This document shows, piece by piece, positions 5,729 through 36,403 of a stretch of 38,683 nucleotides of DNA. Both the position numbers and the translations under genes were made by a program. The notes beneath the pieces were generated by a model, which was given only the letters and a program-made list of their open reading frames with translations, was not told where the DNA came from and did no database searches. This DNA comes from a phage: assembly GCA_033178465.1 (NCBI GenBank), contig GCA_033178465.1_4726.3. The stretch is one strand, 5' to 3'. Within the stretch, counting starts at the first letter, position 1, and every line of letters starts with the position of its first letter.

Positions 5729-5775
5729 TGCGTACCTCAACGTTATACGTCGTTTGTATTATAATACGCTATCGT

Positions 5776-5799: not shown

Positions 5800-5813
5800 T
5801 CTGCAAACTACTC

Positions 5814-13354: not shown

Positions 13355-13497
13355 ATGTAATTCCTTTATTACGGCATATAAGAAAACGGGTTAAGCACAC
13401 AGATTTATGCATAATTGTAATATTTTACGTTATGCCTATGACATTGTGTCACGTGTGCAATTATGTCATACAATTTCCTTAAATTAAGGAGAGTTCC
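13355..13497. promoter_or_regulatory. divergent intergenic control region
   Basis: 143-bp AT-rich non-coding region between divergently transcribed genes. Contains the inverted pair ATGACAT (13438..13444) / ATGTCAT (13463..13469) flanking CACGTG (13450..13455), and TACAAT (13469..13474) 24 nt upstream of the sheath ATG. Confidence 0.3.
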
Positions 13498-15570
13498 ATG
13501 AGGCTTAAGAATAGCACGCCTCGCGCGATTTTTACGGGCTTTAAAGAGGGTCTTACCACGGATCCGGTTACAGCCCCAGAGATCACGCCCATTCACCTCC
13601 CGTATGTTTTCATTCAGGGTGGTCGTGGTAAAGAGGACACCTTGCTGTTAACAGGGGACGCCCTGTCTACAGTCTACGGTGAAGATATGCTGAACTACCG
13701 CAGTAAGTACGCTTCTCCGGCAACACTGATTGCTCGCCAGGCTGCTTCTACAGGTAGCGCGATCTTCACAAAACGTTTGGTTGCGCCGGATGCAACGGCA
13801 GCACGCATCCGTATCGGTGTTGAAGTGGTCGCCGATAAACTGGTCGTTTACCAGCGTAACGCTGACGGGTCCTTTATGAAGGACACGCTCGGCAACAAAA
13901 TCCCTGACGGCGATAAAACCGTTGACGGGTTGAAAATGCGTTGGGTTGTTAACCACGACAAAGATGCCGAAACACCTAATGCTTTCGGTAAAGATGAAGT
14001 GGTTCTCGGACAACTGACTGCAACGGATGGTGCCCAGAGCAACTACTATCCTATTCTGGATGGAATGGTGAGCTGGCGTGGTGCTGAAGGGGACAACATC
14101 GGCTTACGTCTGGAAGCACCGACCGCGCTGAGCAGCAACCCTACCCGTACCGATATCATCGAACGTATCGGTGCTTTCCTGTACCGCATTCAGTTCGTGG
14201 AACGCAAGTCTTCACGTACTGCGCCGACGGTCATTCGTACGATCAGCGGTATGGAACAAGAAACCTTCGCGTTGCAGGAAGGTGTTATCCAGCCTGATGA
14301 CGAAACCGATCTGTCCTTCGGTAAAGTGGTCGTTGATGCCTACGAGTATAATGAGACGGGTAATACCCCGATCTTTGCTCCGATGGATCAGATGCATCTT
14401 TATCAGAAGAACATCGACGAAGTCGTCAAGAAGCTGTACGAATCTGAAAGCAAAGTTAACAACGATCTGTTAACCGACGTCGAATTCGTCGAAGGCCAGA
14501 TGAACATCTTCACCGGTGTTGATTACAACGGCATTCCGTATCAAACCATCGAAGTTCTCGATGCGGATCAGGGTGGTGCTATCTTCGACGGTACCAGCAC
14601 CTTCTACGCAATCGATGGTAGTGACGGTGACGTAAACTGGGATACCTTCGATGCGTTAGCGAAACAGCAGTTCGAATCGTTCGGCAACATGGGCGAAGAT
14701 CTGGAAGATATGGCTTTCTATCCGTTCTCCATCGTGTATGACATTGGTTACAAAGTCGACACGAAGAAAGCGATGGCAAACGTCTTGTCTCTGCGTCCGG
14801 ATGTCATGATCATTGCGTCAACCCATACCTGGAAGGGTGTGGAACTGAATGTCGATGAAGAAAGCTCCATGGGTGCAATGCTGCGTAACTACTATCGTCT
14901 GCATCCAGAAAGCGTGCTTTACAATACCCCAGCTTGCCGTGCTGCGGTATTCATGCAATACGGTGAAAGCATCGAAGCGCCAAGCCTGGGTAAAGTTCCG
15001 TTGACGCTGGAAGTTGCGAATAAACTTGCAACTTACATGGGTGCTTCGGATGGTGTTATCCGTGGTACTCGCATCGATAACAACCCTGGTAACGTTGTCA
15101 CAACGATGCGTAAAATCAACAAGACGTATCGTAACGCAACGGTCCGTGATCGTGATTGGGAAAACGGCTTGAACTATGTTCAGACCTACAACCGTAATTC
15201 CAACTTCTTCCCGGCTTGGGGCACGATCTACAATAACGACCGTTCGGTATGGCGTTCGTTGATCAACGTGATCATCGGTTGCGATCTGACTCGTGTCTGC
15301 TATCGTCTCTGGGCAGAAACCACCGGTACAACAGGAATGGATGAAACCCTGTTCCTGAAACTGATGGGCGAACGCTTCCTGGAATACACCACGGGTCGTT
15401 ACAACGACCACGTGACTGTTAAGGGACGTTTCTACCTGGATAAAGAAGACGGCTATAACGGCTTCAGCTATCATGGTGATATCAGCCTGATCGGCGATCC
15501 AGGCATGACCGTGGGTACGTTTACCATCACCGGGCTGCGTCGTAACACCGAAGCAGCAGAAGCGGCGTAA
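13498..15570 (+). CDS. putative contractile tail sheath protein (690 aa)
   Basis: Strong SD (AAGGAGAG, 5-nt spacing); codon usage strongly biased toward highly-expressed codons (CGT, GGT, CTG, AAC); size and position directly upstream of a ~300-aa gene fit the sheath-tube pair of phiKZ-like myoviruses. The function is inferred from size and context, not from a motif. Confidence 0.5.
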   Translation: MRLKNSTPRAIFTGFKEGLTTDPVTAPEITPIHLPYVFIQGGRGKEDTLLLTGDALSTVYGEDMLNYRSKYASPATLIARQAASTGSAIFTKRLVAPDATAARIRIGVEVVADKLVVYQRNADGSFMKDTLGNKIPDGDKTVDGLKMRWVVNHDKDAETPNAFGKDEVVLGQLTATDGAQSNYYPILDGMVSWRGAEGDNIGLRLEAPTALSSNPTRTDIIERIGAFLYRIQFVERKSSRTAPTVIRTISGMEQETFALQEGVIQPDDETDLSFGKVVVDAYEYNETGNTPIFAPMDQMHLYQKNIDEVVKKLYESESKVNNDLLTDVEFVEGQMNIFTGVDYNGIPYQTIEVLDADQGGAIFDGTSTFYAIDGSDGDVNWDTFDALAKQQFESFGNMGEDLEDMAFYPFSIVYDIGYKVDTKKAMANVLSLRPDVMIIASTHTWKGVELNVDEESSMGAMLRNYYRLHPESVLYNTPACRAAVFMQYGESIEAPSLGKVPLTLEVANKLATYMGASDGVIRGTRIDNNPGNVVTTMRKINKTYRNATVRDRDWENGLNYVQTYNRNSNFFPAWGTIYNNDRSVWRSLINVIIGCDLTRVCYRLWAETTGTTGMDETLFLKLMGERFLEYTTGRYNDHVTVKGRFYLDKEDGYNGFSYHGDISLIGDPGMTVGTFTITGLRRNTEAAEAA

Positions 15571-20926: not shown

Positions 20927-21637
20927 TCACCCCCTCAGAATCGCTTCTGTTTCGCTGATCGTATCCGCAGGATAAACCAAACTACTATCGATTGCGTTAT
21001 TCACGTAACCACCCATTAAGTTGGTGATGGTGTTTGTACCACTATCGATAATGTTTCGTAATCCGATGTCGATGGCTTTTAAGGTGCTGCGTTCTTCATC
21101 TGAAAGCAGACGCCATGCCCGACGACGATCGTTGGGGTCACGCGTGGTGATAGAAGCCAGAACAGAATAGATGCTGCTATCCGCATTCAATTTAACACCA
21201 GCCAATTTCGCTGACGTGTAGAGCAGCTGATATTTTTCTTTCTCAGTGTACCACCATGGCACTTTACCGAGCGTATAGATCTCGTTATACATCAGCCATG
21301 GGAAAGAGTTTCGCATCACGACATCGGTTGACACCAACACCGTGTCGCCGGGAAGAAACACAAATTCATAAAACGGCTGACCATCCATGGTAATTTCACG
21401 GATGTCAGACGGGTCGATATGGAGCTGGGTCAATGCGTGGCTGACACCATACTGACCATCGGGAAGAATAATCGGGCAGCACGCACAAACCCGGTTCTCA
21501 CTCCCGATGATAGATAAACCCAATCCCTCGTAACGGACGGGCGTCAGAATCGAACACCCGCCACGAGTAACAACAGATTTATCTTCTTGTATGTCCCAGT
21601 CCGCAAGCACCGCAGCACCGTTGCGGACAAGCGCCAT
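20927..21637 (-). CDS. hypothetical protein (236 aa)
   Basis: ORF with ATG at 21635-21637 directly abutting the upstream TAA; GAGGTG 5 nt upstream. Confidence 0.6.
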   Translation of the reverse strand: MALVRNGAAVLADWDIQEDKSVVTRGGCSILTPVRYEGLGLSIIGSENRVCACCPIILPDGQYGVSHALTQLHIDPSDIREITMDGQPFYEFVFLPGDTVLVSTDVVMRNSFPWLMYNEIYTLGKVPWWYTEKEKYQLLYTSAKLAGVKLNADSSIYSVLASITTRDPNDRRRAWRLLSDEERSTLKAIDIGLRNIIDSGTNTITNLMGGYVNNAIDSSLVYPADTISETEAILRG

Positions 21638-23161
21638 TTACACCTCGCTAATCTGGATAACGTAAAGCTGCTGGGCCACGTAATCGGTGGTCAGATGCAT
21701 CGTTGCGATGGTCGCTGCTTCGAACACCGTGAGTTCAGGACGTTCACGCATAATCAAATCGATCTCGTCGATGAGACGGTTAACGCCTTGAGCGTCTTCA
21801 TGATGCATGGTTTTCACGTACAGTGTACGGAAATACTGCTGGAAGTTAGCTACGTCGGTATCGGTAAGGGTAGCAACTTCACCACGTACGATTTCCATAA
21901 CCTTCTTACGGGTATCTTCATCGAGGTCCACGGTAATCAGATCAGCAAATACACCCTGCAATGCCAACGCGTATGCACGTAAGCGGTTTGCGGCTTGCTG
22001 GCTGGCTTTCATGTTAATGTAGTTACGGTAATGCTGCATGAAGCCCGCACCGTTAGCCAACAGTTCATCTTTACTGATGAGTTCACGTTCTAACAGGACA
22101 GCTGCGGTCAGTGCTTCCGGCGAACCACCTTCTTGCAGATAACCCATGTAGACGTCTGCGTTAACGAAAATCGTCATCGTTGACGCGTCTTCAGCACGTT
22201 GAATCTGAGAAGCTGATGGCGCAGAAAGAATCAGCTCACCACGCTCCATACGCAGGATACGATCGCGACCGACGCGTGCCATCCCGTTGATCGCCGCAGC
22301 ACGAGCTTGTTGCATTTTAGCGCGGTAGTTTTCAAGCATCATGTCGTTGCCGTCCTGGATATCTTCCAGCAGGTTAACGGCCCACATATAGCAGAGGAAT
22401 GCAGGAGTTGCCGCAGCGCGGGAACCGTGGAATGCAACGTTATCGCTATCCGGATACGTAATCAGATAAGCGGTGTTGTTCGAAGAAGGAGCGGAACCAC
22501 GGAAGAAATAGTTGTAGATGTCTTCCAGTGCCTGATCGCTCATCCCTTCCGTTGCTTGCTGTACAAAACGATCCAGGTTTTCATTACCGGTATACAGCAA
22601 CGTACGCAGCTTATCACCGGTGATAAACGCAAGCTTTCCGGTTGGAGTGAAATCGTTATTAATCGAAATCAAGCCATTGAGATCGTAATCGCTAACTAAT
22701 GCCTGATATTCTTCAGAGTTATAAAACTCAGGATAGTAACTCAGACTTACTGTCGGGATCAGTTTCGGTGCCAGGATGATCGAATCGATACGTTTTTCCA
22801 GTTCCGGGTACAGCGCACGGCATTTCGGCAGGATGGTATTACGCGCCAACTCTTTGGCATACACCACTTTTTCCACCACGTCTTGAACTGCGGTCTGTAA
22901 AACTTCATCGTGGATATAAACCTCGCGTTCGCTGGCAGGTGCTACAACGCCATCTTCGGTTTCATCAAGTGTTTCAGCAACAACCATACGTTCAGCACTA
23001 AGCTGTACCAACGCATCCGCGTCTTCCGGCGGCTGGTTCCAGTGCATGGTTTCACAAACCGCGGCTAACGGAGTACCTGGAATCGCAGCGACGATTTGGT
23101 TACGTTTGATAAACCCTTCGACAATAGGCTCAACAGCATAAACGGTTTTATTGGTGATCAT
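21638..23161 (-). CDS. hypothetical protein (507 aa)
   Basis: ORF with ATG at 23159-23161 overlapping the upstream stop (TAATG); GGAGGGAG upstream. Confidence 0.6.
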   Translation of the reverse strand: MITNKTVYAVEPIVEGFIKRNQIVAAIPGTPLAAVCETMHWNQPPEDADALVQLSAERMVVAETLDETEDGVVAPASEREVYIHDEVLQTAVQDVVEKVVYAKELARNTILPKCRALYPELEKRIDSIILAPKLIPTVSLSYYPEFYNSEEYQALVSDYDLNGLISINNDFTPTGKLAFITGDKLRTLLYTGNENLDRFVQQATEGMSDQALEDIYNYFFRGSAPSSNNTAYLITYPDSDNVAFHGSRAAATPAFLCYMWAVNLLEDIQDGNDMMLENYRAKMQQARAAAINGMARVGRDRILRMERGELILSAPSASQIQRAEDASTMTIFVNADVYMGYLQEGGSPEALTAAVLLERELISKDELLANGAGFMQHYRNYINMKASQQAANRLRAYALALQGVFADLITVDLDEDTRKKVMEIVRGEVATLTDTDVANFQQYFRTLYVKTMHHEDAQGVNRLIDEIDLIMRERPELTVFEAATIATMHLTTDYVAQQLYVIQISEV

Positions 23162-23394
23162 TACTGCGCTCCCTCCAACGCATTACTACCTACGGGTTCT
23201 TTGGTTTCCAGACGGCTGTTTAAGCGCGCAGCAACCGCATCTTCCAATCCCAACGGCATAACCTTTTTGTTCACGTCAGGATCGGCGGCATCATTACCAA
23301 CGGTTTGACGTACGACCTCAGCAACCAACGTTACCGCGTTCGTCAGCGCAACAAAGCTCGCTGCCCGAGCCGTGTTAAGTTGTTCTTGGTTCAT
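23161..23394 (-). CDS. hypothetical small protein (77 aa)
   Basis: Short ORF with ATG at 23392-23394 and AGGA upstream; first gene after the terminator that follows the RNAP beta-like gene; translationally coupled to the 507-aa gene. Confidence 0.45.
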   Translation of the reverse strand: MNQEQLNTARAASFVALTNAVTLVAEVVRQTVGNDAADPDVNKKVMPLGLEDAVAARLNSRLETKEPVGSNALEGAQ

Positions 23395-23445: not shown

Positions 23446-23469
23446 GGTACTGCGTTCAGCGAAATAAAC

Positions 23470-23495
23470 GAGCAGGGGCATGAAGCCCCCTGCTC
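23470..23495 (-). terminator. intrinsic terminator GAGCAGGGG-(8 nt)-CCCCTGCTC after the RNAP beta-like gene
   Basis: Perfect 9-bp stem starting 1 nt after the TAA stop at 23496..23498; T-rich sequence on both sides (minus strand: GUUUAUUUCGCU). Confidence 0.55.
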
Positions 23496-26400
23496 TTATT
23501 TGGCGTCGTTAAAATAAATATCAACAGCTCGTTCCGTTGCGTAGAGGAGACCAAGATTCACAGTCCCAACCACTTCCGGTGAACCGATGATACGGTTAGC
23601 GATACTGGTGCCACTGAAGATAGCATCAAGGGTGTGCCCGTCTTCGGTTTTGTTCACACCATGACCCACGGAAGAGACAACGGATTTCGCTTGAGCTGCG
23701 AAGGTACCTTTATCACCCATCCCCGCACCAAGGTCGTAACGCATGAAAATACGGATGGCGATCTGGTTCTCGCCTAACGGATTACCGTCTATTCTCACGT
23801 TACTGTTATTGATACGTCCCGTTGTTGCTTCGTTGAGTTTCAGTTCCTTGACACGTTTAGCTCGCGCTTTATCCGCCTCACCGACGAGGGCCGCCATGGT
23901 TTCACTCATGTCCTCAATCTGAGCGCGGTACAGTACATCGATCTGTACAACTTCACCATGAACATCAGCACGTGGGTTATACTGACTCATACGACGTAAT
24001 GCTTCAACGGCTTCCTGACTCTCATCACTCAGATCAGTTGCAATCGGTTCTTCCAGTGTTGCAAGGATCGTTCGTGGTTCAACATGATCGCCGATTTTCA
24101 CGAGACCACGAATGTTGAGATGAGCGTCAACAATGAGGGTACGGCTCTTAATCGATGGTGTTACGAGACGATCGGCAAGATTGTCGAAGATATACGAACT
24201 GTCCTCATGCGTCTCTGGAATATCCAGAATACCGACAAGAGACAGAACACCTGCACGCCAAACAACCTGACCTGGGTTCCACCAGTCGCGTTTAAAATAA
24301 AGACGATGGAAAACCACCACATCCTGATCCTTAACGCGATCCCCGACTTTATAATCGGTAATGAGATCGTGAGGATAATACTTACCTGGTCCTTTCCCGA
24401 TTATCGTACCGAGTTGGAAAACCTCTTCTCCTAACTCTGGATCGTCGTATTGTACCGTAAGCGCAGTTTTGGTGACCTTCTTAACAACACCATCGCCTTG
24501 GGCAGCTGCTGCAAAGAGCTTACCAACACGATGCGCGATGACAGTCTCACCACCGGTGCGCCACGGTTGTACATCGTAACCTTCAGCGGCAATCATGCGG
24601 TTGTGTTGGATCCCGACGAAGACCAGACGTTTTCCATCATCACGGTCTACAGCCGGAACAGCTAACGCCGATGTACTCATTACCGATGAGATACCATCTG
24701 TCTTTTCATCGAATGGTCGTGTTTCACCATACACCGACACGATATTAGCATTAGGTGCAAGGTAAGCAGAGATACCCACATCCCCGCTATCCTTCGTACC
24801 TTCTGATACAATACCGACATCTGACTTGTCGTACTCACGATCACGTGCACGTCGAAGCGATGTCTTTGAACGACCCCCGATACCGGTCATCGTCGCTTCT
24901 TCACCCTGCTTGATATCCAGCATCGGGTTGGTTTCATCGATCACGATGGAAGCGCTGTCGTCGAGAATTTGGTTCCAGACACTTACCGGACTGATTGAGA
25001 TTTTCTGACGATTTCCTTGACTGCTGTTCTCATTCTGACGAATAGCGCCAACCAGATCCTTATACACCAATTCAGCGAACTTATCGTACGTTTTAAAACG
25101 TTGGTAGTTCACATCGTTCGTGTTAGGAGCCCAATCATCCAGAAGCAGTTCAACAGCACGCAGCAGCAACATGGCGAAATCGGTAGGTTCTCCCATGTTC
25201 TGTAGCAACGTACGGCTTACCGGATCAACGAAAAGACGCTCCATGAGTTCAAGTTCGCGCAAATGACGAACCTTAAGTCCAGCACCATCGACAACGTTAA
25301 AATAGATATCTCGATTGTCGAAAGCACCGCGAGCGTAACCAATGTAGTTACGGTACTCGTTGAACCCACCCAACAGTAACGTCGTCATGCGATCGTCTTT
25401 ACTGAAAATCAAACTTTCGTCGTCAAAGCTCACCGCGAATTCATCGGGTGCTAGACCCATACGAGAGCCGCGAGGTACCGTACGATAGTTCGCTTTAAGA
25501 TGTTCTAATAACGGGGTAAGTCCACCCAGATAACTTAGAACAACACCAACCGGAATACGTACACCCATGAATTCAAGATCAGCGGCTTCGATCGGCATCT
25601 TAGCCGCATTGATACCGAAGAAATCAGGGAACGTCCCTACAGGTGTTGGTGTTTGTCCTGACTGACAGATATAGAGATGATTGCGTTTATCGATTGCTAA
25701 GAATTCACCCAGCGTGTTACGCGCAAACGTCAGGAGCCCTTCGGCTAACTGTTCGTTGAACCGATCTTCCCCGATAAACTCCGGCAATGTCTTTGTATCG
25801 AGACGTATATCCCAATCAGCAAATTGGATTTGGGTATAATTGCGCGCAAGCACTGCGAAGTAGTACGGAACTTTGACAGCCGGATCAAAGACGTTACCGC
25901 GTTTCAACGTGGTTAAGGGTGAGGATTTATCGTAATACATCGCCGTAAGTTGACGTGTTAGCCAACGACCGGCGTTATTAACGACGCGCTCTGAACGTTT
26001 AACAAACACCTTACCGTAGGCGGTACTCAACGCAACTTCAGATGACGATACCTTTCTAATAGGTTTATCGACGCGTTGTTTACGCATCCGGTACTTGATG
26101 CCGTTAACGACATAAATGCCGTCCTTACGAACCTTCGGCAACATCACCGGGAACGTGGTCGGGACACCGCCTACGGGAGCCAGTTTAATCGTGATGACTT
26201 GGTAATCCCCCATCACGTCAACAACATCTTCGACTTTATATCCCGTGACTGGGTAACCCGCTTGCTGTACAGCAACAACGGCAGCTGCGATGTCCTTTTG
26301 CATTACGTGTTCGACGTAATGTTTATCCCACACCGCGAGCGTCGATTTGCATAGGCTCTTATCGACGATAACATCCGCTTCCGGCATAACCTTCGCAGGA

Positions 26401-27842
26401 GCTAATTTCGCGGCTTTTGGTTTGACTTCAACATACTCAGCGAGCGTGAGTCCAGAACCGTCAGGTGCTTCGATTTCATGGATGGCGTCAGCATTACGCA
26501 TCGCTGCTTTATATTGGACGCCACTTAACTGACCTGCATCGGCCAGATCGCTCGCGCGCACCAACACCGCATCCGATAACGACTGAATATATTCGCCATG
26601 CGTTTTCGGTAACGTTGCCGCGTCAAAGACATCAACCTTTTCTTCTTCGGTATCGTCGGTAACGACTTCGAAGAGATCGTCGGTAATGTCCTGATCTTCA
26701 TCGGGTTGGAAATCTGGTTGTACTTCTACCCCGGGTACTTCACGGACATCTTCGAACGAGCGTTCTACAATGGCGTTCCACGCATCGGCATCATCGTCTT
26801 CATCCGACCCACCAACCAACTCCGCTTCTAACTCATCGGGGTCAAGAACGGTAGCCAGATCCTCACCGTTAGGAAGCACGACGTCGCGATCGTCATACTC
26901 CGCATCCGGGCTGTCCGCAAGAATATCTCGCTCTTGACGAAGAACCTGTTCCTCTTCTTGTTTCTGTTCTTCTTCATTCGCGCTCTGCGACCACAGACGT
27001 GTTACCGCCATCATCCAACGACGCTGGAAGGTTTCGAGTGTCGTTTTGTCGAGTTCTTCCCCTTCCTTTACAAGCCCGGTACGCCATTCTTCCAGCAAGC
27101 CGAGATTCAGTGTGAAGAAGTACACACCGTCTGTAAATACAACGTTAAGCTTATCCAGCGTGGCTCTGTCTAACGAAGCCATCGTGCTGTTCTCACGATC
27201 GACGCCCAGCCAGCGGAAGAAGTCAAAGAACGACAGCTCCTCCGGTGTGGCGAAATTCATGAGGTTGTTACGGGTCGGTGCCTGTTGCGTGGTACGCATC
27301 AACGAAATCTTCGGCAATGTTGACGGTATACGGAACAACAGAAAGTGTTGACGATCGCTTTGCTGTGCGATTTCGTTGGCTTTCGACCAAATTGTTTTAC
27401 GTACGTTGAACCATTCATCATACCAACGGGTGAGCGTTGGACGATAGATGTACATGTGGTTAAGATGCGCGTAGTTAGCAACAATCTGAGCGTTGATGTT
27501 TTTCTCCACCGTACTTAGATCGGTAACCAAACGAAAACGACGATGTGATGCACGATAATCCAATTTCGCTCGTGGAAGTTGGAATCGTTGATCACGTCGA
27601 GGTGCGCCCTGTTTGGTTGCGAGATCATCAGCAAACGAAATCCATAGTTGAGCATTTTCTTTACTCAGCATGTATTCGTTTTCTGGAGGACCTATCAATG
27701 AAGGATCCGTTGCGGTGTAATGATAGACAGCATAACGCGGCAGCTGCAATAGCTGCACTAAACGTAATCTTGGCGATAATAGCTCTTGGTAGCGTCTGAC
27801 ACCAAACTGTCGGTAGTAATCAAGGTATTTAAGTTTTGCCAT
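23496..27842 (-). CDS. multisubunit RNA polymerase beta-like subunit fragment (1448 aa)
   Basis: Residues about 983-1030 (MTGIGGRSKTSLRRARDREYDKSDVGIVSEGTKDSGDVGISAYLAPNANI) align by eye to bacterial beta [43 protein letters not shown]; the C-terminal GAGMGDKGTFAAQAK...TEDGHTLDAIFSGTSIANRIIG parallels beta GDKMAGRHGNKGV...[23 protein letters not shown]. The protein stops before the GEMEVWAL-type C-terminal module. ATG at 27840-27842, 3 nt after the stop of the beta-prime gene. Confidence 0.7.
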   Translation of the reverse strand: MAKLKYLDYYRQFGVRRYQELLSPRLRLVQLLQLPRYAVYHYTATDPSLIGPPENEYMLSKENAQLWISFADDLATKQGAPRRDQRFQLPRAKLDYRASHRRFRLVTDLSTVEKNINAQIVANYAHLNHMYIYRPTLTRWYDEWFNVRKTIWSKANEIAQQSDRQHFLLFRIPSTLPKISLMRTTQQAPTRNNLMNFATPEELSFFDFFRWLGVDRENSTMASLDRATLDKLNVVFTDGVYFFTLNLGLLEEWRTGLVKEGEELDKTTLETFQRRWMMAVTRLWSQSANEEEQKQEEEQVLRQERDILADSPDAEYDDRDVVLPNGEDLATVLDPDELEAELVGGSDEDDDADAWNAIVERSFEDVREVPGVEVQPDFQPDEDQDITDDLFEVVTDDTEEEKVDVFDAATLPKTHGEYIQSLSDAVLVRASDLADAGQLSGVQYKAAMRNADAIHEIEAPDGSGLTLAEYVEVKPKAAKLAPAKVMPEADVIVDKSLCKSTLAVWDKHYVEHVMQKDIAAAVVAVQQAGYPVTGYKVEDVVDVMGDYQVITIKLAPVGGVPTTFPVMLPKVRKDGIYVVNGIKYRMRKQRVDKPIRKVSSSEVALSTAYGKVFVKRSERVVNNAGRWLTRQLTAMYYDKSSPLTTLKRGNVFDPAVKVPYYFAVLARNYTQIQFADWDIRLDTKTLPEFIGEDRFNEQLAEGLLTFARNTLGEFLAIDKRNHLYICQSGQTPTPVGTFPDFFGINAAKMPIEAADLEFMGVRIPVGVVLSYLGGLTPLLEHLKANYRTVPRGSRMGLAPDEFAVSFDDESLIFSKDDRMTTLLLGGFNEYRNYIGYARGAFDNRDIYFNVVDGAGLKVRHLRELELMERLFVDPVSRTLLQNMGEPTDFAMLLLRAVELLLDDWAPNTNDVNYQRFKTYDKFAELVYKDLVGAIRQNENSSQGNRQKISISPVSVWNQILDDSASIVIDETNPMLDIKQGEEATMTGIGGRSKTSLRRARDREYDKSDVGIVSEGTKDSGDVGISAYLAPNANIVSVYGETRPFDEKTDGISSVMSTSALAVPAVDRDDGKRLVFVGIQHNRMIAAEGYDVQPWRTGGETVIAHRVGKLFAAAAQGDGVVKKVTKTALTVQYDDPELGEEVFQLGTIIGKGPGKYYPHDLITDYKVGDRVKDQDVVVFHRLYFKRDWWNPGQVVWRAGVLSLVGILDIPETHEDSSYIFDNLADRLVTPSIKSRTLIVDAHLNIRGLVKIGDHVEPRTILATLEEPIATDLSDESQEAVEALRRMSQYNPRADVHGEVVQIDVLYRAQIEDMSETMAALVGEADKARAKRVKELKLNEATTGRINNSNVRIDGNPLGENQIAIRIFMRYDLGAGMGDKGTFAAQAKSVVSSVGHGVNKTEDGHTLDAIFSGTSIANRIIGSPEVVGTVNLGLLYATERAVDIYFNDAK

Positions 27843-27845
27843 GGG

Positions 27846-29492
27846 TTAGGCTCCACGAGGTCCCGTTAAGTTGCGTAGTAGGAACGCAACCGTATCGTAA
27901 CCAATATCGATGTTGAATTTATTTTTACCGCTTACCCAGAAAGCTCGCTTCTTGTGCGAGTTGGTAATTTCGTCAATGGCTTCCATGGAATAAAGAACGT
28001 TAACCGAGACTGTATCACCATCAAAGTCCCCACCAAGTCCGGCGAGGTATGGCGCAGGGACAATAGTCGTTTCTACGAACGAAGCATTAGGTAACCAGTC
28101 GGGGTATTCCCATGCGATAAATCGTTCATCCGTCATTGGTTCCCAGTTACTATCCAGTTCGGTTTTCGGTTTTGCTGCAACGGTCGTACGCGCGTAACAG
28201 GTTAACGGAATGACGGATTGCATACCCGATACCGGATAACGTGTTACCATCGCAGCCAGGTTATTCCAGTATTTATATCCTGCGATATAGATAAGCTCGG
28301 TGTACGTGATGGGGTGAACATCCGCACCAGGTTTGTTAAGCATCTCCGGGGGTAATTCACTCATACCACGGAATAACCGAAACGAATCGTTGTTCACATA
28401 GACAAGACAAAGATATCGTCCATTAACCATGATAGGTTCGTTACGCACACCGGGATCGCTTAAGGTGTTCAATAAACGTTCTATCCCGTCCCATGTTGTA
28501 AAGTCATCGATGGTGTCTGGATCAAGCGTGACGCGCTCACGTTCCATCGTTTCGGTATCAATAAGTTCAACTTCTGTAACATCACGGACAAATATTTCCT
28601 GCAAAATACCCGTACGTAACGCATGTTGCGTTACGGGGAGAGCAGCTTTACTCATCTGGTATAACCCTAACTGAACCGCGGTACAGGAAGGCTGGTTAGG
28701 CGACCCTAATACCTCCGTTGTGGGGTTAATTGCCGAAATAACGTTACGGGTTGAGTTCCAAACACGACGTGAGCCGAACTTCCCTTGGAAGATCCCTTTC
28801 TTACCTTGGAACATATCCAACAACAAAGCGTAGATATCGTTAAATGTTCTCTGTAAGCTCCAGCGTTGACCGTCGTAAACGGGATCGGAATAATCTTTTA
28901 ATCCATCAGGGACGGTGTTGGAAATTGCCAGGAAACGACGATACAACTCTGTGATTTCTTGCTCGCTTTCATACCCGCCTTCTTTTACTTCTATTTCACG
29001 TAAGCCCGCAGGTAAAACCAGTAAGTGACGGGTCATCGCTTTGAACATGTTCTCTTCGACAACTTTAATTCGTAGCTCTCGTTGAGCTGAACCCGTTGAA
29101 ACGAACTTGATATCAGCGACGTGTTGTGCAAAGAACCCGTATCCTGTTTGTCCTGTTAACGCATCGGACGCAACGAAGTCGCGTTGTTCAGGATCCCAAC
29201 GCGCGTACGCCTTTCCTGACATGATATCGCCATAGAGGTGTTTTAATCGAATGAGGCGGTCGTAAATGACAGGATGCAGGATTTCAACCTTGCATTCAAT
29301 CACCGCAAATCGACGGTCTCGATCTTCACTACCCGCACTACCAAAGATGGTGTAAGAATAGAAACCATCATCGTGGAAATTACCGGTGCTTGGGTCACGA
29401 ATGCTCATGCTCGTGATCTTGGGGAGAAAACGTAACTGCTGTTTATCGAGGTGTAAAATACTAATATTAAACGGCTCTCTGACTTTAGCCAT
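27846..29492 (-). CDS. multisubunit RNA polymerase beta-prime N-terminal fragment (about 548 aa)
   Basis: Contains LAGLGGDFDGDTVSVNVLY (codons at about 28014..28028), matching the beta-prime Mg-binding NADFDGD loop; the N-terminus DGFYSYTIFGS...RRFAVIECKVEILHPV parallels beta-prime GLFCARIFGP...ERMGHIELASPTAHIWF, and GKFGSRRVWNSTRNVISA parallels GKRVDYSGRSVI. The track start (29534) has no SD; the ATG at 29490-29492 (MAKVREPF...) is preceded by AGAGGAG at 7-nt spacing. Confidence 0.75.
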   Translation of the reverse strand: MAKVREPFNISILHLDKQQLRFLPKITSMSIRDPSTGNFHDDGFYSYTIFGSAGSEDRDRRFAVIECKVEILHPVIYDRLIRLKHLYGDIMSGKAYARWDPEQRDFVASDALTGQTGYGFFAQHVADIKFVSTGSAQRELRIKVVEENMFKAMTRHLLVLPAGLREIEVKEGGYESEQEITELYRRFLAISNTVPDGLKDYSDPVYDGQRWSLQRTFNDIYALLLDMFQGKKGIFQGKFGSRRVWNSTRNVISAINPTTEVLGSPNQPSCTAVQLGLYQMSKAALPVTQHALRTGILQEIFVRDVTEVELIDTETMERERVTLDPDTIDDFTTWDGIERLLNTLSDPGVRNEPIMVNGRYLCLVYVNNDSFRLFRGMSELPPEMLNKPGADVHPITYTELIYIAGYKYWNNLAAMVTRYPVSGMQSVIPLTCYARTTVAAKPKTELDSNWEPMTDERFIAWEYPDWLPNASFVETTIVPAPYLAGLGGDFDGDTVSVNVLYSMEAIDEITNSHKKRAFWVSGKNKFNIDIGYDTVAFLLRNLTGPRGA

Positions 29493-29737
29493 GGAGACAC
29501 TCCTCTTTACCACCACCGGCTGCGGCGGTATCATCTGAACACACGAGAGACGTAATGGGTGATGGCGTCACCCATCGCTTCCTTGCCTGATGCCAGGAAG
29601 TTATTAGGTTACGTACCTGCCTGATTTTATCAAGCGGGCGATGTGTGAAGTTACGCTTCAACATTATCAATGCCGAAGGTAAGCTTCGTGCATCACGTTC
29701 CAACGTAACATGGGAACGTATCGAACTGGAGGTATAC

Positions 29738-32700
29738 ATGGTAGATAAAACCCGTGTTGAGGGTGATGATAATTGGGATAACTGGGATGAAGACTTCTCC
29801 CTGGATCTCGATTTTAACGAACCCAAAGACGATCGTAAACCGATAACACGCTTTGCGGTAGGAGCGGTTAAAGGTGCTGCTGAAGATCTTACTTCCTACG
29901 AAAGAATGAAGGAGATCGCCAGAAACGCATTGCCTAAGGGCTACAGCGACGGTATGGATCTTATCGATTCCGCCGTCGGATCCACGAAGGAACTATACAA
30001 TGAAGCCGTTCGTGACGTTCTTCCTAAGGTCCAAAGCTCAAAACGGTTAGCTGCACAACTAACCAAGAAATACCGTGCGAGCATGCCCGATTTCTCGAAG
30101 AAAATTCTCGAGCAATGGGAGCGAGAAGCCAAGGAAGAAGACGAACGTAAACAAGCTGAAGAAGCCCTTCGTCAACGCATGGCGAGCGCGGGGGACGATG
30201 AGATTGCCCGCAAGGTTGCCGAGGCATTAGGCGAATCAGCAAACCAAAGCGCGGATCAGTTTGCTGAACAGCAAGCGAAAGAGAGTATCCGTGACGATAT
30301 CGCTGACAAACGGTACGCTGTAACCAACAAACAAATGAGTGCGATGCAAGAAGGCGTCGCCAAGATGGTTGGTTTCAACAATGAATTCGCTGCACGCTAC
30401 ATGCGTAAAAGCCTGGAACTGAAATATCGTTCCTTAGCGATTCAACGTGCAAGTTTTGATCAGCATAAAAAGTTAGCCGAAGTCTATATCGGTTTATTAC
30501 AAAACATCCAGAAGAATACGGCTTTACCTGATGCAGCTAAAGCGAAGATGTCGGAAGAATTCCGTCGTAGTGCATACCAACGTTTCTTTGGTAATGCGTT
30601 AGATGCGATGGGTTCTTTCGAGAACCGTTTCTTTGCCGATGTTAAGAAGAACCTCGCCACCAACGCATTAGGTGCTTTAAAAGGCGTCGTGTCTGGCGCA
30701 AACGATGCGTTATACGGTTTAAACGAAGCACGTGACTCGATGTCCGTGATGGACGGGATGGGGTCAGAAGGCGATATTAAGGAAATGCAAGGAAAGATGT
30801 TGGGTCAGTTCATTGGCTCAACTGTCGCACCATGGATGGCTAATAAAGGCAGGATGGCGTTACGTGATTTAGCAAAACGTCACCCCAATGCTAAATTCGC
30901 TAGCGCGTTAAAAGCCGTGGATCAAGGTGGTGAGGCTGCCGCATACACAACGCGTAATCTCGGTAAACTGCTCCAGGAAGATATTCGTAAGAACGAATTC
31001 AATCTTAGCGATCCGTTTTACAAGCAATTGTTACGCGGCGCAGGGCGTTGGGCGTTCAACATGGACAGCGGACGTAACTTCCGTGTGATGAACGACACCG
31101 CTGAAACACTGGCAGAGCAAACGTCTTTCGACGGTTTAACTTACCGCAGTATCAATGAAGTTATTCCTGGTTTTCTTGCACGCATTCTGAAAAGCAGTGA
31201 AGGTATCCGCACCGGAAACAGCGATCCTGACTACGAGGTCTATGACGGCATCAGCGGACAATTCGTGTCTCAGCGCACGCGTGAACAAAGCGTCAATGAC
31301 ACGCTGTTTAACAAACGTACATTTGGTTATTACGCCAGCCGTTTCAACGAGGTTATCTCGGTCATCGATCCTGATAAGCAATTATCGGAAAAAGCCAGGA
31401 AGGCACTGGCTAAACAGTTGGCGCGAGATAGCGACGCGAACATCGCATTCGACCCGGTTCGTTTTACGGATGAAAGCAACTTCGATCGTAGCATTGACCG
31501 TGACGCTATTAAGGAACTTTCCACGTACTTTCGTGACCGTTACGGTATTCGTGACGATATCAACGATAAGGGGGAACGTCATCAGGTCATTGGAAACCGC
31601 GGGCAATATTACACGGAACGTAACCGAGCCGATCTTCGCTACGGAAATCTGAAATCGTTACAACCGGATATCCAGCGTAACCTTAACCTACTGAAACGCA
31701 CTGGTGACGTCCAATATCTGGAACGTATTGGTATTGTAACGAGAAATAGCGACGGAAGTTACTCGGTTAATCACGATCGGTATTTCTCTGAAATCGATCG
31801 ATACATCGACCGACCGGAGTACGCTGAACGTAATGATGTTAATACGCGATTAACCGCTCAGGAAACAAGAGCGCTGGCGTTGGGTTATCGTGACGCAAAA
31901 CCATCAGTTGATGACGTCCAAAATGCGGGTCTACCGAACATCGGTCGTAAGGCTGTTGGAACAGTAACCGTTGATGAAAACATCGGCTACGATAAATGGT
32001 GGAACGACACAGGTGTTATCACTACATCGCTTGAAGAACAGAATCGAGCATGGCAAGAACTCTATCTCGAAGCGTTGTCCGAAGCATCCGAACAACGTGT
32101 TGAAATGCTTGCGTTGCTGAAAGCCATTTCTGAGAAAGACTGGTCTAATAACGTTTCGCTGGATGGTGAAGATGTACCTGAAGGTGCAGCACCCATTTCA
32201 TTTATTGACCGCGCCAAACAAAAACTCGGCGCACGCAACCTCTTTAAAGGCGGTCGTAATCTCTTCTGGAAAGGAATTAAAAATACCGCACGGTTGGGTG
32301 TTAAAGGTGCGCGCTGGGGTGCAGAACGTACATTAGGTAGTTTGGTAAATTCTGGCCGACGCATTATCAATTTCAACCGCTTCGTGTTCGGCGCGTTATC
32401 CAAGGTTGATCAGGTTCCGTTCGACATTTACGTTAAAGGGGAATCCCAACCACGCATATTGGCTGCCAAACTTCGTCAAGGGTTATACTTCGATGAAGCG
32501 ACAGGAAAAGCCGTAAAACGGATGAAGGATATCAAAGGCCCACTCGTTGATGCAGATGGAAACATCGTAATCAGCGACGAGGATATCGAGAAAGGGTTGG
32601 TCACTCGCGCTGGTCGTGCCTTTGAGAATTCAGGACTTAAGGCGTGGGCACGTGAAGGTCTTAATGGAATAACGACGGTATTAAGTCTGCCACGGATGTT

Positions 32701-35700
32701 AAAACGCGGTGCGGTCGAGATCTACAAACAGCTTGACAAAACACCCGACGTTTACGTCAAGGGAGAATCAACGCCTCGTCTGTTGTCCATGGTGTTAGCA
32801 GCGGGTGGGTATTTCCGTCGCTCTGACGGACAAGTCATCAAAAATCTTGAAGACGTCGATGGTGATGTTGTTGATGCACAAGGTAACGTCGTGCTTACGC
32901 TTGCCGACATGCAGAAAGGACTTGTCGATAAATACGGTAAAGCGATTCGTCGCTTAAAAGAAAAGCTCATCAACTTCGGTGTAAAAGCTTTTACGTTACC
33001 GTTAACGCTGCTACGTAAGACAAAGGACATCCTTAAAGCCCTTCCAGGTAAAACCGTTAACGGCCTACGACGGATGGGATTAAATTTCCAATCACCTGAC
33101 GCATTACTGGTGGGAACAACGTCGAGCATGGTAGATCGGCTCGATGCGATTTACCAGCTTCTTGACCAGCGTATGCCGGGTGGTGATAAGGATTACCGCG
33201 ATTGGAATGGCGATGGTGTTCGAGAAGGATCGTTGGAAGACCTGAAACGTAAACGTGAAGCCAAGGAAAACGGTAAGGATGACACCGGCAAAGATTCCAA
33301 TAAAGGAGAAGAAAAGGAGAAGAAACGAGGGTTACTCGGAAGCCTTTTCGATATGCTCGGCGATACCGCATTAGGTAAACGCCTCATGGCGAGTCCGCTT
33401 GGAAAAATTCTGGGTGGTCTTGGGGCGGTGTTAAGCGGCGGAGCATCGTTAACCGGATTGTTAGGCAAGGGTCTCATTAGTGGAACCGGCGCGCTGGTCA
33501 AGGGAGGACTAAGTGCGGCAGGATGGTTAGGACGCGGTGCGTTAATGGCGGGCGGGGCCGCATTGAACGCTGTTGGTGGGTTATCGGGATTAGGTGCATT
33601 CCTTATCTCACCTGTTGGGCTTGCTATTGCAGGCGGTGCATTGGCTGCTTATGCTGGATGGAAGATCTATCAGCATTTCGCCGAGAAGCCTGACCCGATG
33701 CAGAAGCTCCGTCTTATTGCATACGGTGCAAAAGGGGACGATAAAGACTTCAATAAGAAGCTGCTTGCGACAGAAACATACCTCACCGACCATGTGGTTA
33801 TGACCGGGGATACCATCGGATTCGATCCGAAAGCGGATTCTGAAAAGATTCTCGAAATCTGGGAATTGTCCCTGGAAGATTCCGACCGAATGAACGAATG
33901 GAAACGCTGGTATCTGCATCGTTTTATTCCTGTTTTCGCTCGCGCGTACAAACTCTGGAAAGAGCATATGCCGGACGAGAAGAAATACATGGAAATGGAT
34001 AAATATCCGAACGGTGAGAACAAAGTGAAATGGTCGGAAGCGTTTATCTGGCCTTCCGATAGTCCTGATGGTCCGTATTACGTCGAAGCTAACCCGTTGG
34101 GTTCTTCTGGTGCGACGCGTTATATTGCTGGTCAAGACGTCAAAACCTTGATGCTGAAACAACTCGAAGCCATCAAGAAAGAGTACCAGAATCAGATCAA
34201 ACAATACTCTCATGATGAGGCTATTGCTGATTGGTCACGGATGTCTGACACACAACGTAAATCCGTTGCCCCTAACGCATTACGTGGTCAGAAAGCGTCG
34301 TTACGTTTTAACGATAAACGTTACAACAGCGCTGGCGCTAAAGGACGACAGAAGCTTGACGCGACCGCGGTTATTGAAAGCGTAGACCGCCGTGGCAGGA
34401 AATGGGTTGCCGGTGGATACATCGATGAACTCACCAGTCTCCGTGTTCGCGCGTACGGTATCAAGGTTCCGTTGTTAAGCCAGATAAAAGTGCTGATGGA
34501 ACTTGAAGACGCTGTAGAACCTGGCGTTGTCGCTGAAGGTAAAGGTGTTAAATACGGTGGCGATCTTGTCGCGCTCTACAAGAAATTCGCGACGAAGTTC
34601 GGAAGAGACGTTAACAGCAAGCATGATCAGGATATCTGGTTTGCTTGGATGAACAACCGTTTCCTGCCCGTCTTTTTAACCTATTACCAACAAGTTAGCG
34701 ACATGGGCGGTCAAGGTCTTCTGTCCGACGTGGTACAGAACCTGAAAGACAGCCAACGCTGGGAGATCGGTGAAGCACTTGTCGCAACGCAATACCGTGA
34801 TGAGAAAGGTACACTGCAGCCCGTATGGTCCTGGAATAGTTGTGGTTTCTCCGGTACTGAAGCTAACACCACCAGCAGTTCAACAAAGAGCCAACTCGAT
34901 CTGTTAAAAGAATATGCGGATAAAGAGAAGGTTCGTGAGAAGAACGCGGAAGCATCGCAAGAGGATACCGAGAAATTATCGAAGATCCAAGAGCTGATGA
35001 TGAAGCAGGCTGGGTACGAGAAGAAGGACGGTGTCTGGCAGAAGAAATCTCGCATTACCGGTGGGATGAGTAACTCCGAAGCGAATTACAACCCCAATGG
35101 GAATAAGGTCGGTGCAAGCAGCTTTACTGCTTCGGCTACTTCCAATGCGGGATTAGGGTCAACCGGCGATCTTACTGGATTGCCTAACATGGGCTTACAG
35201 AAACCTGCAATGGGACCAGGTCCTGAAGCTGGACGTCGTACGCTTGTTAAATCCGCTGTAAAACGCGGTATTACCGATCCAATGGAAATGGCGATGTTCC
35301 TTGCGAACATCGAACATGAATCGGGGAACTACACTCACGTACGTGAGGGGAACTATAAGACACCAGAGCGTCTTAAACAGGTCTTCCCTTACAAATTCCG
35401 TGATGTGCAGGATGCCGCACAGACGATCAGCATGGGGCCGGAAGCGGTATTCGAACGTGTGTATGGTAATCGTAAAGATCTCGGAAACACACAGAAAGGA
35501 GACGGGGCGAAGTATTTAGGACGTGGCTTCATTCAGGTTACCGGTAAAGCTAACTACGCTCGTCTGTCTAAGACCTTGAATAAGGATCTTGTCAGCGATC
35601 CGACATACCTGGAAACGCCGGAAGGTGCAGCGGAAGGTAGTGTCGCATGGTGGCTCAACCGAGGTAACGTATTACGCGATCCCGCAAAACGGGGTGATGT

Positions 35701-36403
35701 ACGCCAAGTTCGTTATCTGGTTAACGGCGGCTATAACGGATTACGTGATGTTGAACAACGTTCAGCTTATTGGATTCAGGCGGCTAAGAACGGCACCCTG
35801 AAGAAAATGATGGACGAGTTATCAGGGTCAACATCCGACGATCAAGCTGAAGGACCAACCACTGCCGAACAGGTGAAGAACGAAGCGGCACAAGAGGCAA
35901 ACGGAACACCTGCTGTAAGCAACGATCCGCAAGCCCCAGTATCTTCTACTACCCCTGAAGCTAAACCGTCTGCGGCTGCCGGGACGGCCCCAGCACCTGG
36001 AGAAGCATCGCCAACGCCTGGAAGTTTCGAAACAGCAAAAGCCGCGGCAGGACAACCGACATCAACTCCAGCACCTAGCGATTTGCCGTCAAACCCGGGC
36101 GCAAATCGAGGGATATCGGTTCCGAATACGCCTGCACAGGTTGCGCAGTCTGCAACACAAACGTCGGCTGCAAGTGAGAACTTCTACGGTAGCGCAGGTG
36201 AAATTCTCCGACAGCAGCTGACCACACAGCAGAACATCGAGAAGAACACCGGTAGAACGAATGAACTTATTTCGGAATTAATCCAAGCCGTTAAGGGTTC
36301 TTCTATCGGTAAGGGTTCTGCAAGTCCTTCTCAACAACAGGCGATGTCGCTACCTAATCGTCCGCAAGGAATCTCTCCAACACGGACAAGGTACGCACAG
36401 TAG
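29738..36403 (+). CDS. giant multidomain virion-type protein with GH19 muralytic domain (2221 aa)
   Basis: The track ORF begins at GTG 29645; the ATG at 29738 follows GGAGG at 5-nt spacing. Contains a coiled-coil-like N-terminal third, a tandem ~108-aa repeat (32423..33060), a glycine-zipper hydrophobic segment (about 33325..33670), a GH19/lysozyme-like domain (about 35230..35800; FLANIEHESG, YLGRGFIQVTGKANY, LVNGGYNG) and a Pro/Ala/Ser/Thr-rich C-terminal tail. Confidence 0.7.
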   Translation: MVDKTRVEGDDNWDNWDEDFSLDLDFNEPKDDRKPITRFAVGAVKGAAEDLTSYERMKEIARNALPKGYSDGMDLIDSAVGSTKELYNEAVRDVLPKVQSSKRLAAQLTKKYRASMPDFSKKILEQWEREAKEEDERKQAEEALRQRMASAGDDEIARKVAEALGESANQSADQFAEQQAKESIRDDIADKRYAVTNKQMSAMQEGVAKMVGFNNEFAARYMRKSLELKYRSLAIQRASFDQHKKLAEVYIGLLQNIQKNTALPDAAKAKMSEEFRRSAYQRFFGNALDAMGSFENRFFADVKKNLATNALGALKGVVSGANDALYGLNEARDSMSVMDGMGSEGDIKEMQGKMLGQFIGSTVAPWMANKGRMALRDLAKRHPNAKFASALKAVDQGGEAAAYTTRNLGKLLQEDIRKNEFNLSDPFYKQLLRGAGRWAFNMDSGRNFRVMNDTAETLAEQTSFDGLTYRSINEVIPGFLARILKSSEGIRTGNSDPDYEVYDGISGQFVSQRTREQSVNDTLFNKRTFGYYASRFNEVISVIDPDKQLSEKARKALAKQLARDSDANIAFDPVRFTDESNFDRSIDRDAIKELSTYFRDRYGIRDDINDKGERHQVIGNRGQYYTERNRADLRYGNLKSLQPDIQRNLNLLKRTGDVQYLERIGIVTRNSDGSYSVNHDRYFSEIDRYIDRPEYAERNDVNTRLTAQETRALALGYRDAKPSVDDVQNAGLPNIGRKAVGTVTVDENIGYDKWWNDTGVITTSLEEQNRAWQELYLEALSEASEQRVEMLALLKAISEKDWSNNVSLDGEDVPEGAAPISFIDRAKQKLGARNLFKGGRNLFWKGIKNTARLGVKGARWGAERTLGSLVNSGRRIINFNRFVFGALSKVDQVPFDIYVKGESQPRILAAKLRQGLYFDEATGKAVKRMKDIKGPLVDADGNIVISDEDIEKGLVTRAGRAFENSGLKAWAREGLNGITTVLSLPRMLKRGAVEIYKQLDKTPDVYVKGESTPRLLSMVLAAGGYFRRSDGQVIKNLEDVDGDVVDAQGNVVLTLADMQKGLVDKYGKAIRRLKEKLINFGVKAFTLPLTLLRKTKDILKALPGKTVNGLRRMGLNFQSPDALLVGTTSSMVDRLDAIYQLLDQRMPGGDKDYRDWNGDGVREGSLEDLKRKREAKENGKDDTGKDSNKGEEKEKKRGLLGSLFDMLGDTALGKRLMASPLGKILGGLGAVLSGGASLTGLLGKGLISGTGALVKGGLSAAGWLGRGALMAGGAALNAVGGLSGLGAFLISPVGLAIAGGALAAYAGWKIYQHFAEKPDPMQKLRLIAYGAKGDDKDFNKKLLATETYLTDHVVMTGDTIGFDPKADSEKILEIWELSLEDSDRMNEWKRWYLHRFIPVFARAYKLWKEHMPDEKKYMEMDKYPNGENKVKWSEAFIWPSDSPDGPYYVEANPLGSSGATRYIAGQDVKTLMLKQLEAIKKEYQNQIKQYSHDEAIADWSRMSDTQRKSVAPNALRGQKASLRFNDKRYNSAGAKGRQKLDATAVIESVDRRGRKWVAGGYIDELTSLRVRAYGIKVPLLSQIKVLMELEDAVEPGVVAEGKGVKYGGDLVALYKKFATKFGRDVNSKHDQDIWFAWMNNRFLPVFLTYYQQVSDMGGQGLLSDVVQNLKDSQRWEIGEALVATQYRDEKGTLQPVWSWNSCGFSGTEANTTSSSTKSQLDLLKEYADKEKVREKNAEASQEDTEKLSKIQELMMKQAGYEKKDGVWQKKSRITGGMSNSEANYNPNGNKVGASSFTASATSNAGLGSTGDLTGLPNMGLQKPAMGPGPEAGRRTLVKSAVKRGITDPMEMAMFLANIEHESGNYTHVREGNYKTPERLKQVFPYKFRDVQDAAQTISMGPEAVFERVYGNRKDLGNTQKGDGAKYLGRGFIQVTGKANYARLSKTLNKDLVSDPTYLETPEGAAEGSVAWWLNRGNVLRDPAKRGDVRQVRYLVNGGYNGLRDVEQRSAYWIQAAKNGTLKKMMDELSGSTSDDQAEGPTTAEQVKNEAAQEANGTPAVSNDPQAPVSSTTPEAKPSAAAGTAPAPGEASPTPGSFETAKAAAGQPTSTPAPSDLPSNPGANRGISVPNTPAQVAQSATQTSAASENFYGSAGEILRQQLTTQQNIEKNTGRTNELISELIQAVKGSSIGKGSASPSQQQAMSLPNRPQGISPTRTRYAQ
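32423..33060 (+). repeat. intragenic tandem duplication (2 x ~108 codons) inside the giant gene
   Basis: Protein modules DIYVKGESQPRILAAKLRQGLYFDEATGKAVKRMKDIKGPLVDADGNIVISDEDIEKGLV... and DVYVKGESTPRLLSMVLAAGGYFRRSDGQVIKNLEDVDGDVVDAQGNVVLTLADMQKGLV... align along their length; the nucleotide copies start at 32423 and 32747. Confidence 0.5.

Follow-up and report, generated by a model that had tools for sequence, protein, structure and literature searches.

Genes for the probable beta-prime and beta N-terminal subunits of a virion RNA polymerase in a Goslar-like jumbo phage

Packaged polymerases of jumbo phages and a Goslar-like locus

Jumbo phages such as phiKZ, AR9, SPN3US and Goslar are known to package an RNA polymerase (RNAP) in the virion, to eject it into the host, and to transcribe their early genes without the host enzyme. 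In phiKZ and AR9, early genes are transcribed with no need for host RNAP or for new protein synthesis. For Goslar, all five subunits of this virion RNAP (vRNAP), namely gp78, gp196, gp205, gp207 and gp210, have been detected in purified virions by mass spectrometry (MS), at approximately 5-35 copies per virion (Table S4, Goslar virion study). Here we examine a related locus in a 38,683-nucleotide stretch of phage DNA (contig GCA_033178465.1_4726.3 of NCBI GenBank assembly GCA_033178465.1; hereafter the window, whose positions are used throughout), for which an earlier note, made from the sequence alone, had proposed split beta and beta-prime genes of a phage RNAP. Two adjacent minus-strand genes at 23496-29492 very probably encode the N-terminal pieces of the beta-prime and beta subunits (beta-prime-N and beta-N) of a five-polypeptide, virion-packaged RNAP of a Goslar-like chimallivirus.

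The vRNAP system of Goslar-like chimalliviruses has already been described, and the finding itself is in that sense a known one. The biology as stated is established, and by itself changes nothing in the field. The present analysis places the window in a Goslar-like chimallivirus and names three genes that the source assembly calls 'hypothetical protein', the 548-amino-acid (aa) beta-prime-N product among them. Homology, fold, motif conservation, orthology and synteny were assessed here, while statements on virion packaging, subunit stoichiometry and early-gene function are drawn from work on Goslar, phiKZ, SPN3US and 201phi2-1.

The 6-kb region that holds both genes shares 95.8% DNA identity with Escherichia phage vB_EcoM_Goslar (Goslarvirus, NC_048170), and nothing else in the phage collection matches it at about that level (~95.8%). 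Orthologues were recovered by tblastn in 310 jumbo-phage records; the 308 beyond the closest share 21-40% identity. These results agree with the view taken in the earlier note, that the DNA comes from a phiKZ-like jumbo phage with its own multisubunit RNAP. Judged by sequence comparison, the window is part of the genome of an E. coli jumbo phage that is Goslar-like and nucleus-forming (Chimalliviridae). Its vRNAP genes are those of Goslar in the same order (gp205, gp207, gp210). The 548-aa protein differs from spliced Goslar gp205 at 2 residues, and the 1448-aa protein from gp207 at 10 (99.3% identical), while the 236-aa product of a third open reading frame (ORF), at 20927-21637, shows no differences from gp210. 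The principal contrast lies in the beta-prime-N gene, which is interrupted by a 2044-nucleotide (nt) group I intron in Goslar and is uninterrupted in the window. Many surveillance assemblies of E. coli and Salmonella contain Goslar-like contigs, 236-247 kb in length. Searches of 5,426 complete E. coli genomes and of the PLSDB plasmids gave no match.

The corresponding proteins of phiKZ (gp180, gp178 and gp176), 201phi2-1 (gp275, gp273/274 and gp269) and SPN3US (gp240, gp241 and gp244) are orthologous to those of the window at 33-40% identity, the first of each set to the 548-aa and the second to the 1448-aa protein. These three phages share with it the gene order, the neighbours (a divergent lysin/tail fibre gene upstream and a head protease gene downstream) and probably the five-piece split, but they infect other hosts and carry their introns elsewhere. 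Indeed, 201phi2-1 and PhiPA3 have an intron in the beta gene, at the DRDD-equivalent position.

Two further groups of enzymes are informative. The non-virion RNAPs (nvRNAPs) of AR9 (PDB 7S00/7S01) and phiKZ resemble the window's enzyme in being split after the beta-prime barrel, in having no alpha or omega subunit, and in their related fold; the AR9 enzyme is the best PDB match for the window's beta-prime-N. Yet they are paralogues of ~14% identity, consist of four beta/beta-prime pieces with a sigma-like fifth subunit, and are synthesised once infection has begun, to work within the phage nucleus. The cyanobacterial and plastid enzymes, with RpoC1/gamma and RpoC2, have a beta-prime cut after the first double-psi beta-barrel, as in the window, and give strong fold and profile matches. 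This split site is common to phage and cyanobacterial/plastid beta-prime (PMC7598289). In contrast to the window's enzyme, they retain the zinc element and an undivided beta, and include alpha, omega and sigma subunits.

The two subunit genes and their products

Over 23496-29534, the minus strand is occupied by two long ORFs, listed at 27846-29534 and 23496-27842, and no ORF on the plus strand exceeds ~130 codons. The first can be read from an ATG at 29534 or from one at 29492. The latter is most likely the true start, because a Shine-Dalgarno-like AGAGGAG lies 7 nt upstream of it (minus strand, 29506-29500) and the same start is annotated in Goslar. This gives a beta-prime-N gene at 27846-29492 that encodes 548 aa, and a beta-N gene at 23496-27842 that encodes 1448 aa, both on the minus strand and with stop codons included in the coordinates. 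The two genes are direct neighbours, as the earlier note had it; 3 nt lie between them, and they do not overlap. Across their junction (minus strand, 27854-27843) run a GGAG at 27854-27851, which sits inside the end of the beta-prime-N gene, the TAA stop codon at 27848-27846, the spacer ccc and the ATG at 27842. In seven other phage genera, 2-18 nt separate this gene pair. Translational coupling of the pair is plausible from this arrangement.

Directly 3' of the beta-N stop codon lies an intrinsic-terminator-like hairpin (minus strand, 23462-23495), with a 9-bp stem that includes 7 G-C pairs, followed by GTTTATTT. A terminator is annotated at the equivalent position in Goslar. The hairpin is strong and bidirectional, with a T-run. 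Judging from phiKZ, the phage that carries this intrinsic-terminator-like signal would not be expected to employ the host polymerase.

The 548-aa protein is, from its sequence and modelled fold, the N-terminal piece of beta-prime, comprising the first double-psi beta-barrel with the Mg-binding DFDGD loop, and lacking the bacterial zinc element. It is matched by PHROG 2986 ('RNA polymerase beta subunit') at E 1.4e-179. A profile of 75 homologues, run against the PDB with hmmsearch, finds the AR9 nvRNAP beta-prime N-terminal chain at E 1.2e-15, plastid and cyanobacterial beta-prime/gamma chains at ~2e-8 and E. coli beta-prime at 3e-7, with cellular beta-prime matches spanning ~1e-8 to 1e-6. Residues 40-254 align by hhalign with residues 52-357 of E. 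coli beta-prime (RpoC) at a probability of 93.7%. The AlphaFold2 (AF2) model has a mean pLDDT of 85, and a Foldseek search with it returns 589 PDB matches at E <= 1e-3. All 50 of the 50 listed are beta-prime or gamma chains, the best being AR9 7S00_d (E 3.8e-15, with 14% sequence identity to that chain) and cyanobacterial RpoC1 also among the best.

The catalytic loop itself, residues 489-493, is encoded at 28014-28028 (minus strand) and aligns with NADFDGD of plastid beta-prime and with DYDGD of AR9. All 75 homologues keep D489, D491, G492 and D493. Cysteines occur in the 548-aa protein only at positions 67, 270, 362 and 432, and the alignment to E. coli beta-prime shows a 28-residue deletion exactly over the four-Cys Zn cluster (C70, C72, C85 and C88). 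The earlier note had described a beta-prime N-terminal fragment with a DFDGD loop, a single cysteine within the first ~100 residues and no zinc ribbon, and each part of that description is borne out, the cysteine in question being Cys67. The alignment of the 75 homologues has no invariant Cys column, so that the missing zinc element is a trait of the phage family and not a defect of the window's copy.

The 1448-aa protein is, on its alignments and predicted structure, the large beta piece, made up of a phage-specific extension, the beta lobes, an equivalent of the fork/Rif region and the second double-psi beta-barrel. PHROG 3148, which bears the same annotation as PHROG 2986, matches it end to end (E 0). 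A beta-N profile of 62 homologues, searched against the PDB, gives 52 matches, of which 48 are beta chains; that to Thermus thermophilus beta has E 1.3e-16. By hhalign, residues 963-1421 align with E. coli beta 510-1110 at a probability of 95.5%, and known motifs fall into register. The segment GIGGRS...SEGTKDSGDVG (residues 987-1023) lies over GPGGL...ETPEGPNIG, DRDDGKR (residues ~1066-1072) over EHDDANR, and GDKGTFAAQAKS (residues 1376-1387) over GDKMAGRHGNKG, which belongs to the second double-psi beta-barrel with its GDK...K motif. The first and last of these correspond to E. coli beta 534-573 and 1062-1079, and are also aligned with Thermus beta. K1378, Q1384 and K1386 are invariant among the 62 homologues. 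Consequently, the GPGG...ETPEG-like segment that the earlier note had picked out does lie in the homologous place, and both proteins give significant matches to RNAP beta and beta-prime by profile-profile search and structure prediction, two of the checks which that note had proposed.

Homology to beta is confined to residues 480-1448 (minus strand, 23499-26405), as delimited by the model, Foldseek, the motif positions and the alignments. The AF2 model of this body has a pLDDT of 89.9 and a pTM of 0.85, and all 50 of its top 50 Foldseek matches in the PDB are bacterial beta chains (best E 2.1e-30, TM ~0.55). The protein stops at approximately E. coli beta residue 1137, so that the last ~200 beta residues are absent, as expected for a beta-N piece. 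The remainder, roughly residues 1-480 (minus strand, 26403-27842), is an N-terminal extension of no detectable beta homology, recognised from its composition and conserved columns. It includes a conserved domain (~1-290), an acidic variable linker (~251-400, with 38 Asp and Glu in residues 301-400) and a further segment to ~480. The N-terminal domain has conserved columns among the 62 phage homologues, and no PDB or Pfam match was found for residues 1-480. The description of this protein as beta-like consequently stands for residues ~480-1448, and does not extend to the first ~480. A stretch of ~400 residues without homology has also been noted in SPN3US beta-N, for which a role in head targeting was proposed and is still a hypothesis (PMC5105663).

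The similarity of the window's subunits to those of cellular RNAPs is remote, at 12-14% identity to their bacterial counterparts, and recognising it from raw sequence is not trivial. A Pfam scan gave nothing above threshold for the 1448-aa protein, the 548-aa protein or any of the 75 homologues of the latter, and a single-sequence phmmer search of the 1448-aa protein against the PDB gave no RNAP match. A homologue search with the full-length 1448-aa protein returned 3 proteins, and a repeat with residues 480-1448 gave 90. The poor yield of the full-length search was probably due to the acidic low-complexity linker dominating the word index.

Virion enzyme, proposed function and alternatives

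The enzyme is assigned to the virion RNAP, and not to the non-virion one, because its orthologues are found in virions, its genes lie in a conserved structural block, and the nvRNAP paralogue is far more distant. Besides the Goslar proteins, the 201phi2-1 orthologues gp275 and gp273/274 are annotated as identified by mass spectrometry, and phiKZ gp180 occurs in purified virions and is absent from the phage nucleus. SPN3US gp240 (beta-prime-N), gp241 (beta-N), gp218 (beta-C), gp42 (beta-prime-M) and gp244 (beta-prime-C) are head proteins, and all five vanish in an amber mutant of gp241, which is essential (PMC5105663). Structural genes surround the two window genes. They stand in a block that runs from a divergent lysin/tail fibre gene through beta-prime-N, beta-N, a small ORF, a ~500-aa ORF and a ~240-aa ORF to the head protease gene. 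This order is shared by the window, Goslar, SL2 (Phikzvirus), SPFM19 (Seoulvirus), RAY, FLC1-1B, sm033, LAh10 and 201phi2-1. From the five-piece split (beta-prime-N, -M and -C, beta-N and beta-C), the window holds beta-prime-N and beta-N, together with a protein of the gp176/gp244 family at 20927-21637.

It is very unlikely that the two genes instead encode the second, non-virion RNAP, an enzyme produced soon after infection and responsible for middle and late transcription in the phage nucleus. The closest solved structure is indeed non-virion, namely AR9 beta-prime, probably because no solved vRNAP was found, and the nvRNAP-type family PHROG 2987 does match the 548-aa protein. That match is weak, however (E 1.5e-5 against 1.4e-179 for PHROG 2986), and the AR9 chain shares only 14% identity. 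PHROG 2986 and 3148, the two families that do match strongly, include proteins of the phiKZ gp180/gp178 type. Further, the near-identical Goslar proteins are found in virions, and head and tail genes surround the window pair, with the head protease gene as a neighbour. The nvRNAP consists of four pieces with a gp68-like factor, whereas a five-piece split with an extended beta-N and a small beta-prime-C is the layout of the vRNAP.

Several points weigh against a virion RNAP, or at least against a firm statement of it. The subunit homology is visible only with profiles and models, Pfam giving no match. TM-scores of the beta-prime-N model are low (0.32-0.38) despite Foldseek probabilities of 1.00, likely as a consequence of modelling an isolated multi-domain chain with other domain orientations. 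Evidence for packaging and activity comes from relatives. No purified or structurally solved jumbo-phage vRNAP was found in the literature searched, and subunit contacts are extrapolated from non-virion enzymes for this reason. Finally, the beta-prime-C assignment of the 236-aa protein was not reproduced by profile or hhalign tests.

If the two genes do specify a virion RNAP, as we consider very probable, its working can be sketched from the described systems. Beta-prime-N and beta-N would assemble with beta-C and beta-prime-M, which are encoded elsewhere, and with the small beta-prime-C encoded 1.9 kb downstream, without alpha or omega subunits. The enzyme would be packed in the capsid at about 10 copies and ejected with the DNA into the early-infection vesicle. 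It would then initiate at AT-rich phage promoters and transcribe the early genes, the second polymerase's own genes included, without host RNAP. The vRNAP genes themselves would belong to the structural, late class. We infer that beta-prime-N and beta-N are carried on one late transcript, which would be co-translated and end at the hairpin after the beta-N gene. The suggestion of the earlier note that host sigma70 promoter logic may not apply here is in agreement with the promoter content of the region: between 20500 and 30000 there are 8 sigma-70-like sites, against 13.3 +/- 3.7 in shuffled sequences, and hence no enrichment. Host sigma-70 promoter models are the wrong ones for annotating the window.

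A still less probable explanation holds that the proteins are catalytically dead polymerase relics, kept as structural or ejection proteins of the capsid. They are packaged in the head, the beta piece carries a large non-polymerase N-terminal extension, and no in vitro reconstitution of vRNAP activity has been reported. Against this stand the Asp residues of DFDGD and the Lys/Gln/Lys of the beta barrel, which are invariant in dozens of homologues at 30-40% identity. The independence of early transcription in phiKZ and AR9 from host RNAP and from new protein synthesis also argues for an active enzyme, as does the essential nature of SPN3US gp241.

YonO is a single-subunit-style polymerase that has a DFDGD motif and no zinc ribbon. 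Least credible of all is that the window encodes either a two-barrel enzyme of this style (YonO, crAss-like), with which it does share the DFDGD motif and the missing zinc ribbon, or an acquired and decaying copy of host rpoB/rpoC: unlike in YonO and crAss-like gp66, its barrels lie on two separate ORFs with a stop codon and a 3-nt spacer between them, and a full set of beta lobes is modelled, while both ORFs are intact, at 12-14% identity to bacterial subunits, have no match in the complete E. coli genomes and have orthologues confined to jumbo phages.

The catalytic-loop intron site, the third subunit candidate and neighbouring genes

The Goslar beta-prime-N gene is 2044 nt longer than that of the window, and the insertion falls exactly between the first Asp and the Phe codons of DFDGD, in the context ...GGT GAT / intron / TTC GAC GGT GAT.... 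Within it are a group I intron core (Rfam RF00028, 67.7 bits) and an ORF, gp206, with HNH_3 and NUMOD1 domains. The intron occupies positions 10531-12574 of the Goslar locus L001 (from NC_048170), between exons at 10348-10530 and 12575-14041, and splicing the exons in silico yields a 548-aa protein. The RefSeq/GenBank entry for Goslar gp205 represents exon 1 only: it is 502 aa long, has an intron read-through end, and is without DFDGD and the last 59 residues. By comparison with the spliced exons, the window's uninterrupted gene gives the correct product directly. Intact, intron-free alleles such as this are convenient templates for expression and for structure prediction of the five-subunit enzyme.

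The empty homing site of the window lies between 28026 and 28025 on the minus strand, between codons D489 and F490, and reads GGTGGGGAC/TTTGATGGTGAT. No Rfam family scored above threshold anywhere in the window. Two IMG/VR contigs show that the site is polymorphic: a close relative, L010, is intron-less at DFDGD, and L012 carries there a 510-nt, ORF-less group I intron (~5468-5977, 64.9 bits). At least 3 different read-through tails follow ...LGGD in members of the 90% protein cluster. The intron placement in the Goslar DFDGD codons, the intron-less allele of the window and the other introns that relatives have at this site are new in this analysis.

Among the four alleles read as DNA, those without an intron (the window and L010) have GAC/TTT at the site, and those with one (Goslar and L012) have GAT/TTC. 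Within 15 nt of the intron site, the window and Goslar differ by six silent changes, and only 0.4% of 30-nt windows over the 18-kb alignment of the two phages are as dense in differences. This clustering could have arisen from co-conversion during homing, or from selection for endonuclease resistance. A comparable case is PhiPA3, whose intron endonuclease mediates interference competition and has its target in the phiKZ beta gene, at the DRDD-equivalent site (PMC11620839). The Goslar-group site lies in the beta-prime subunit gene, in contrast to the PhiPA3/phiKZ site in the beta gene. We speculate, with considerable doubt, that the DFDGD codons are a live homing-intron battleground among Goslar-like coliphages, and that the silent changes at the homing site of the window confer resistance to the HNH endonuclease of intron-bearing relatives. 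Such homing-site resistance, if true, would parallel the interference competition between PhiPA3 and phiKZ, here with the catalytic loop of beta-prime as its place. As a lead, the intron polymorphism in the DFDGD codons is a modest one.

The third subunit candidate, beta-prime-C, is the 236-aa protein encoded 1.9 kb downstream at 20927-21637 (minus strand). This is a literature assignment. The protein is 100% identical to Goslar gp210, which the Goslar virion MS lists as vRNAP, is matched by PHROG 2926 (E 3.7e-56), and is homologous to phiKZ gp176, SPN3US gp244 and 201phi2-1 gp269, with its position conserved in seven other genera. The beta-prime-C role of the gp244 family comes from a weak HHpred match and from the co-disappearance of subunits in the SPN3US amber mutant (PMC5105663). 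An 8-sequence profile of the 236-aa protein gave only chance matches in the PDB (E >= 0.3), to antibody light chains and annexins, and hhalign against E. coli RpoC returned a probability of 0.15%. No other ORF in the window matches an RNAP family in PHROG. The beta-prime-M and beta-C subunits of Goslar are gp78 and gp196, and their counterparts fall outside the window. The earlier note had placed all remaining fragments beyond the window, which accordingly holds for the beta-prime middle and beta C-terminal pieces but not for the beta-prime C-terminal piece assigned in the literature, which lies inside it.

Two conserved genes separate beta-N from the beta-prime-C candidate, both on the minus strand. 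The orthologue of Goslar gp209 (phiKZ gp177 family), at 21638-23161, abuts the candidate gene without a gap, and the orthologue of Goslar gp208, at 23161-23394, overlaps it by 1 nt on the other side. According to the Goslar virion preprint, gp208 and gp209 each exceed 200 copies per virion, and the heterodimer predicted for them is packaged and not injected. We considered both genes as extra polymerase factors, and rejected them on account of this copy number and the lack of injection. A literature search for cleavage of vRNAP subunits by the head protease, whose gene closes the block, found nothing relevant.

At the opposite end of the block, divergent from the beta-prime-N gene, the plus strand encodes a 2252-aa protein (29645-36403). 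Its residues 42-1205 match the tail fibre family PHROG 3201, and an endolysin/chitinase-like domain lies at approximately 1871-2094. A giant gene occupies the same position in all 8 of the 8 related phages examined, and the 201phi2-1 annotation calls its product a putative cell-puncturing device.

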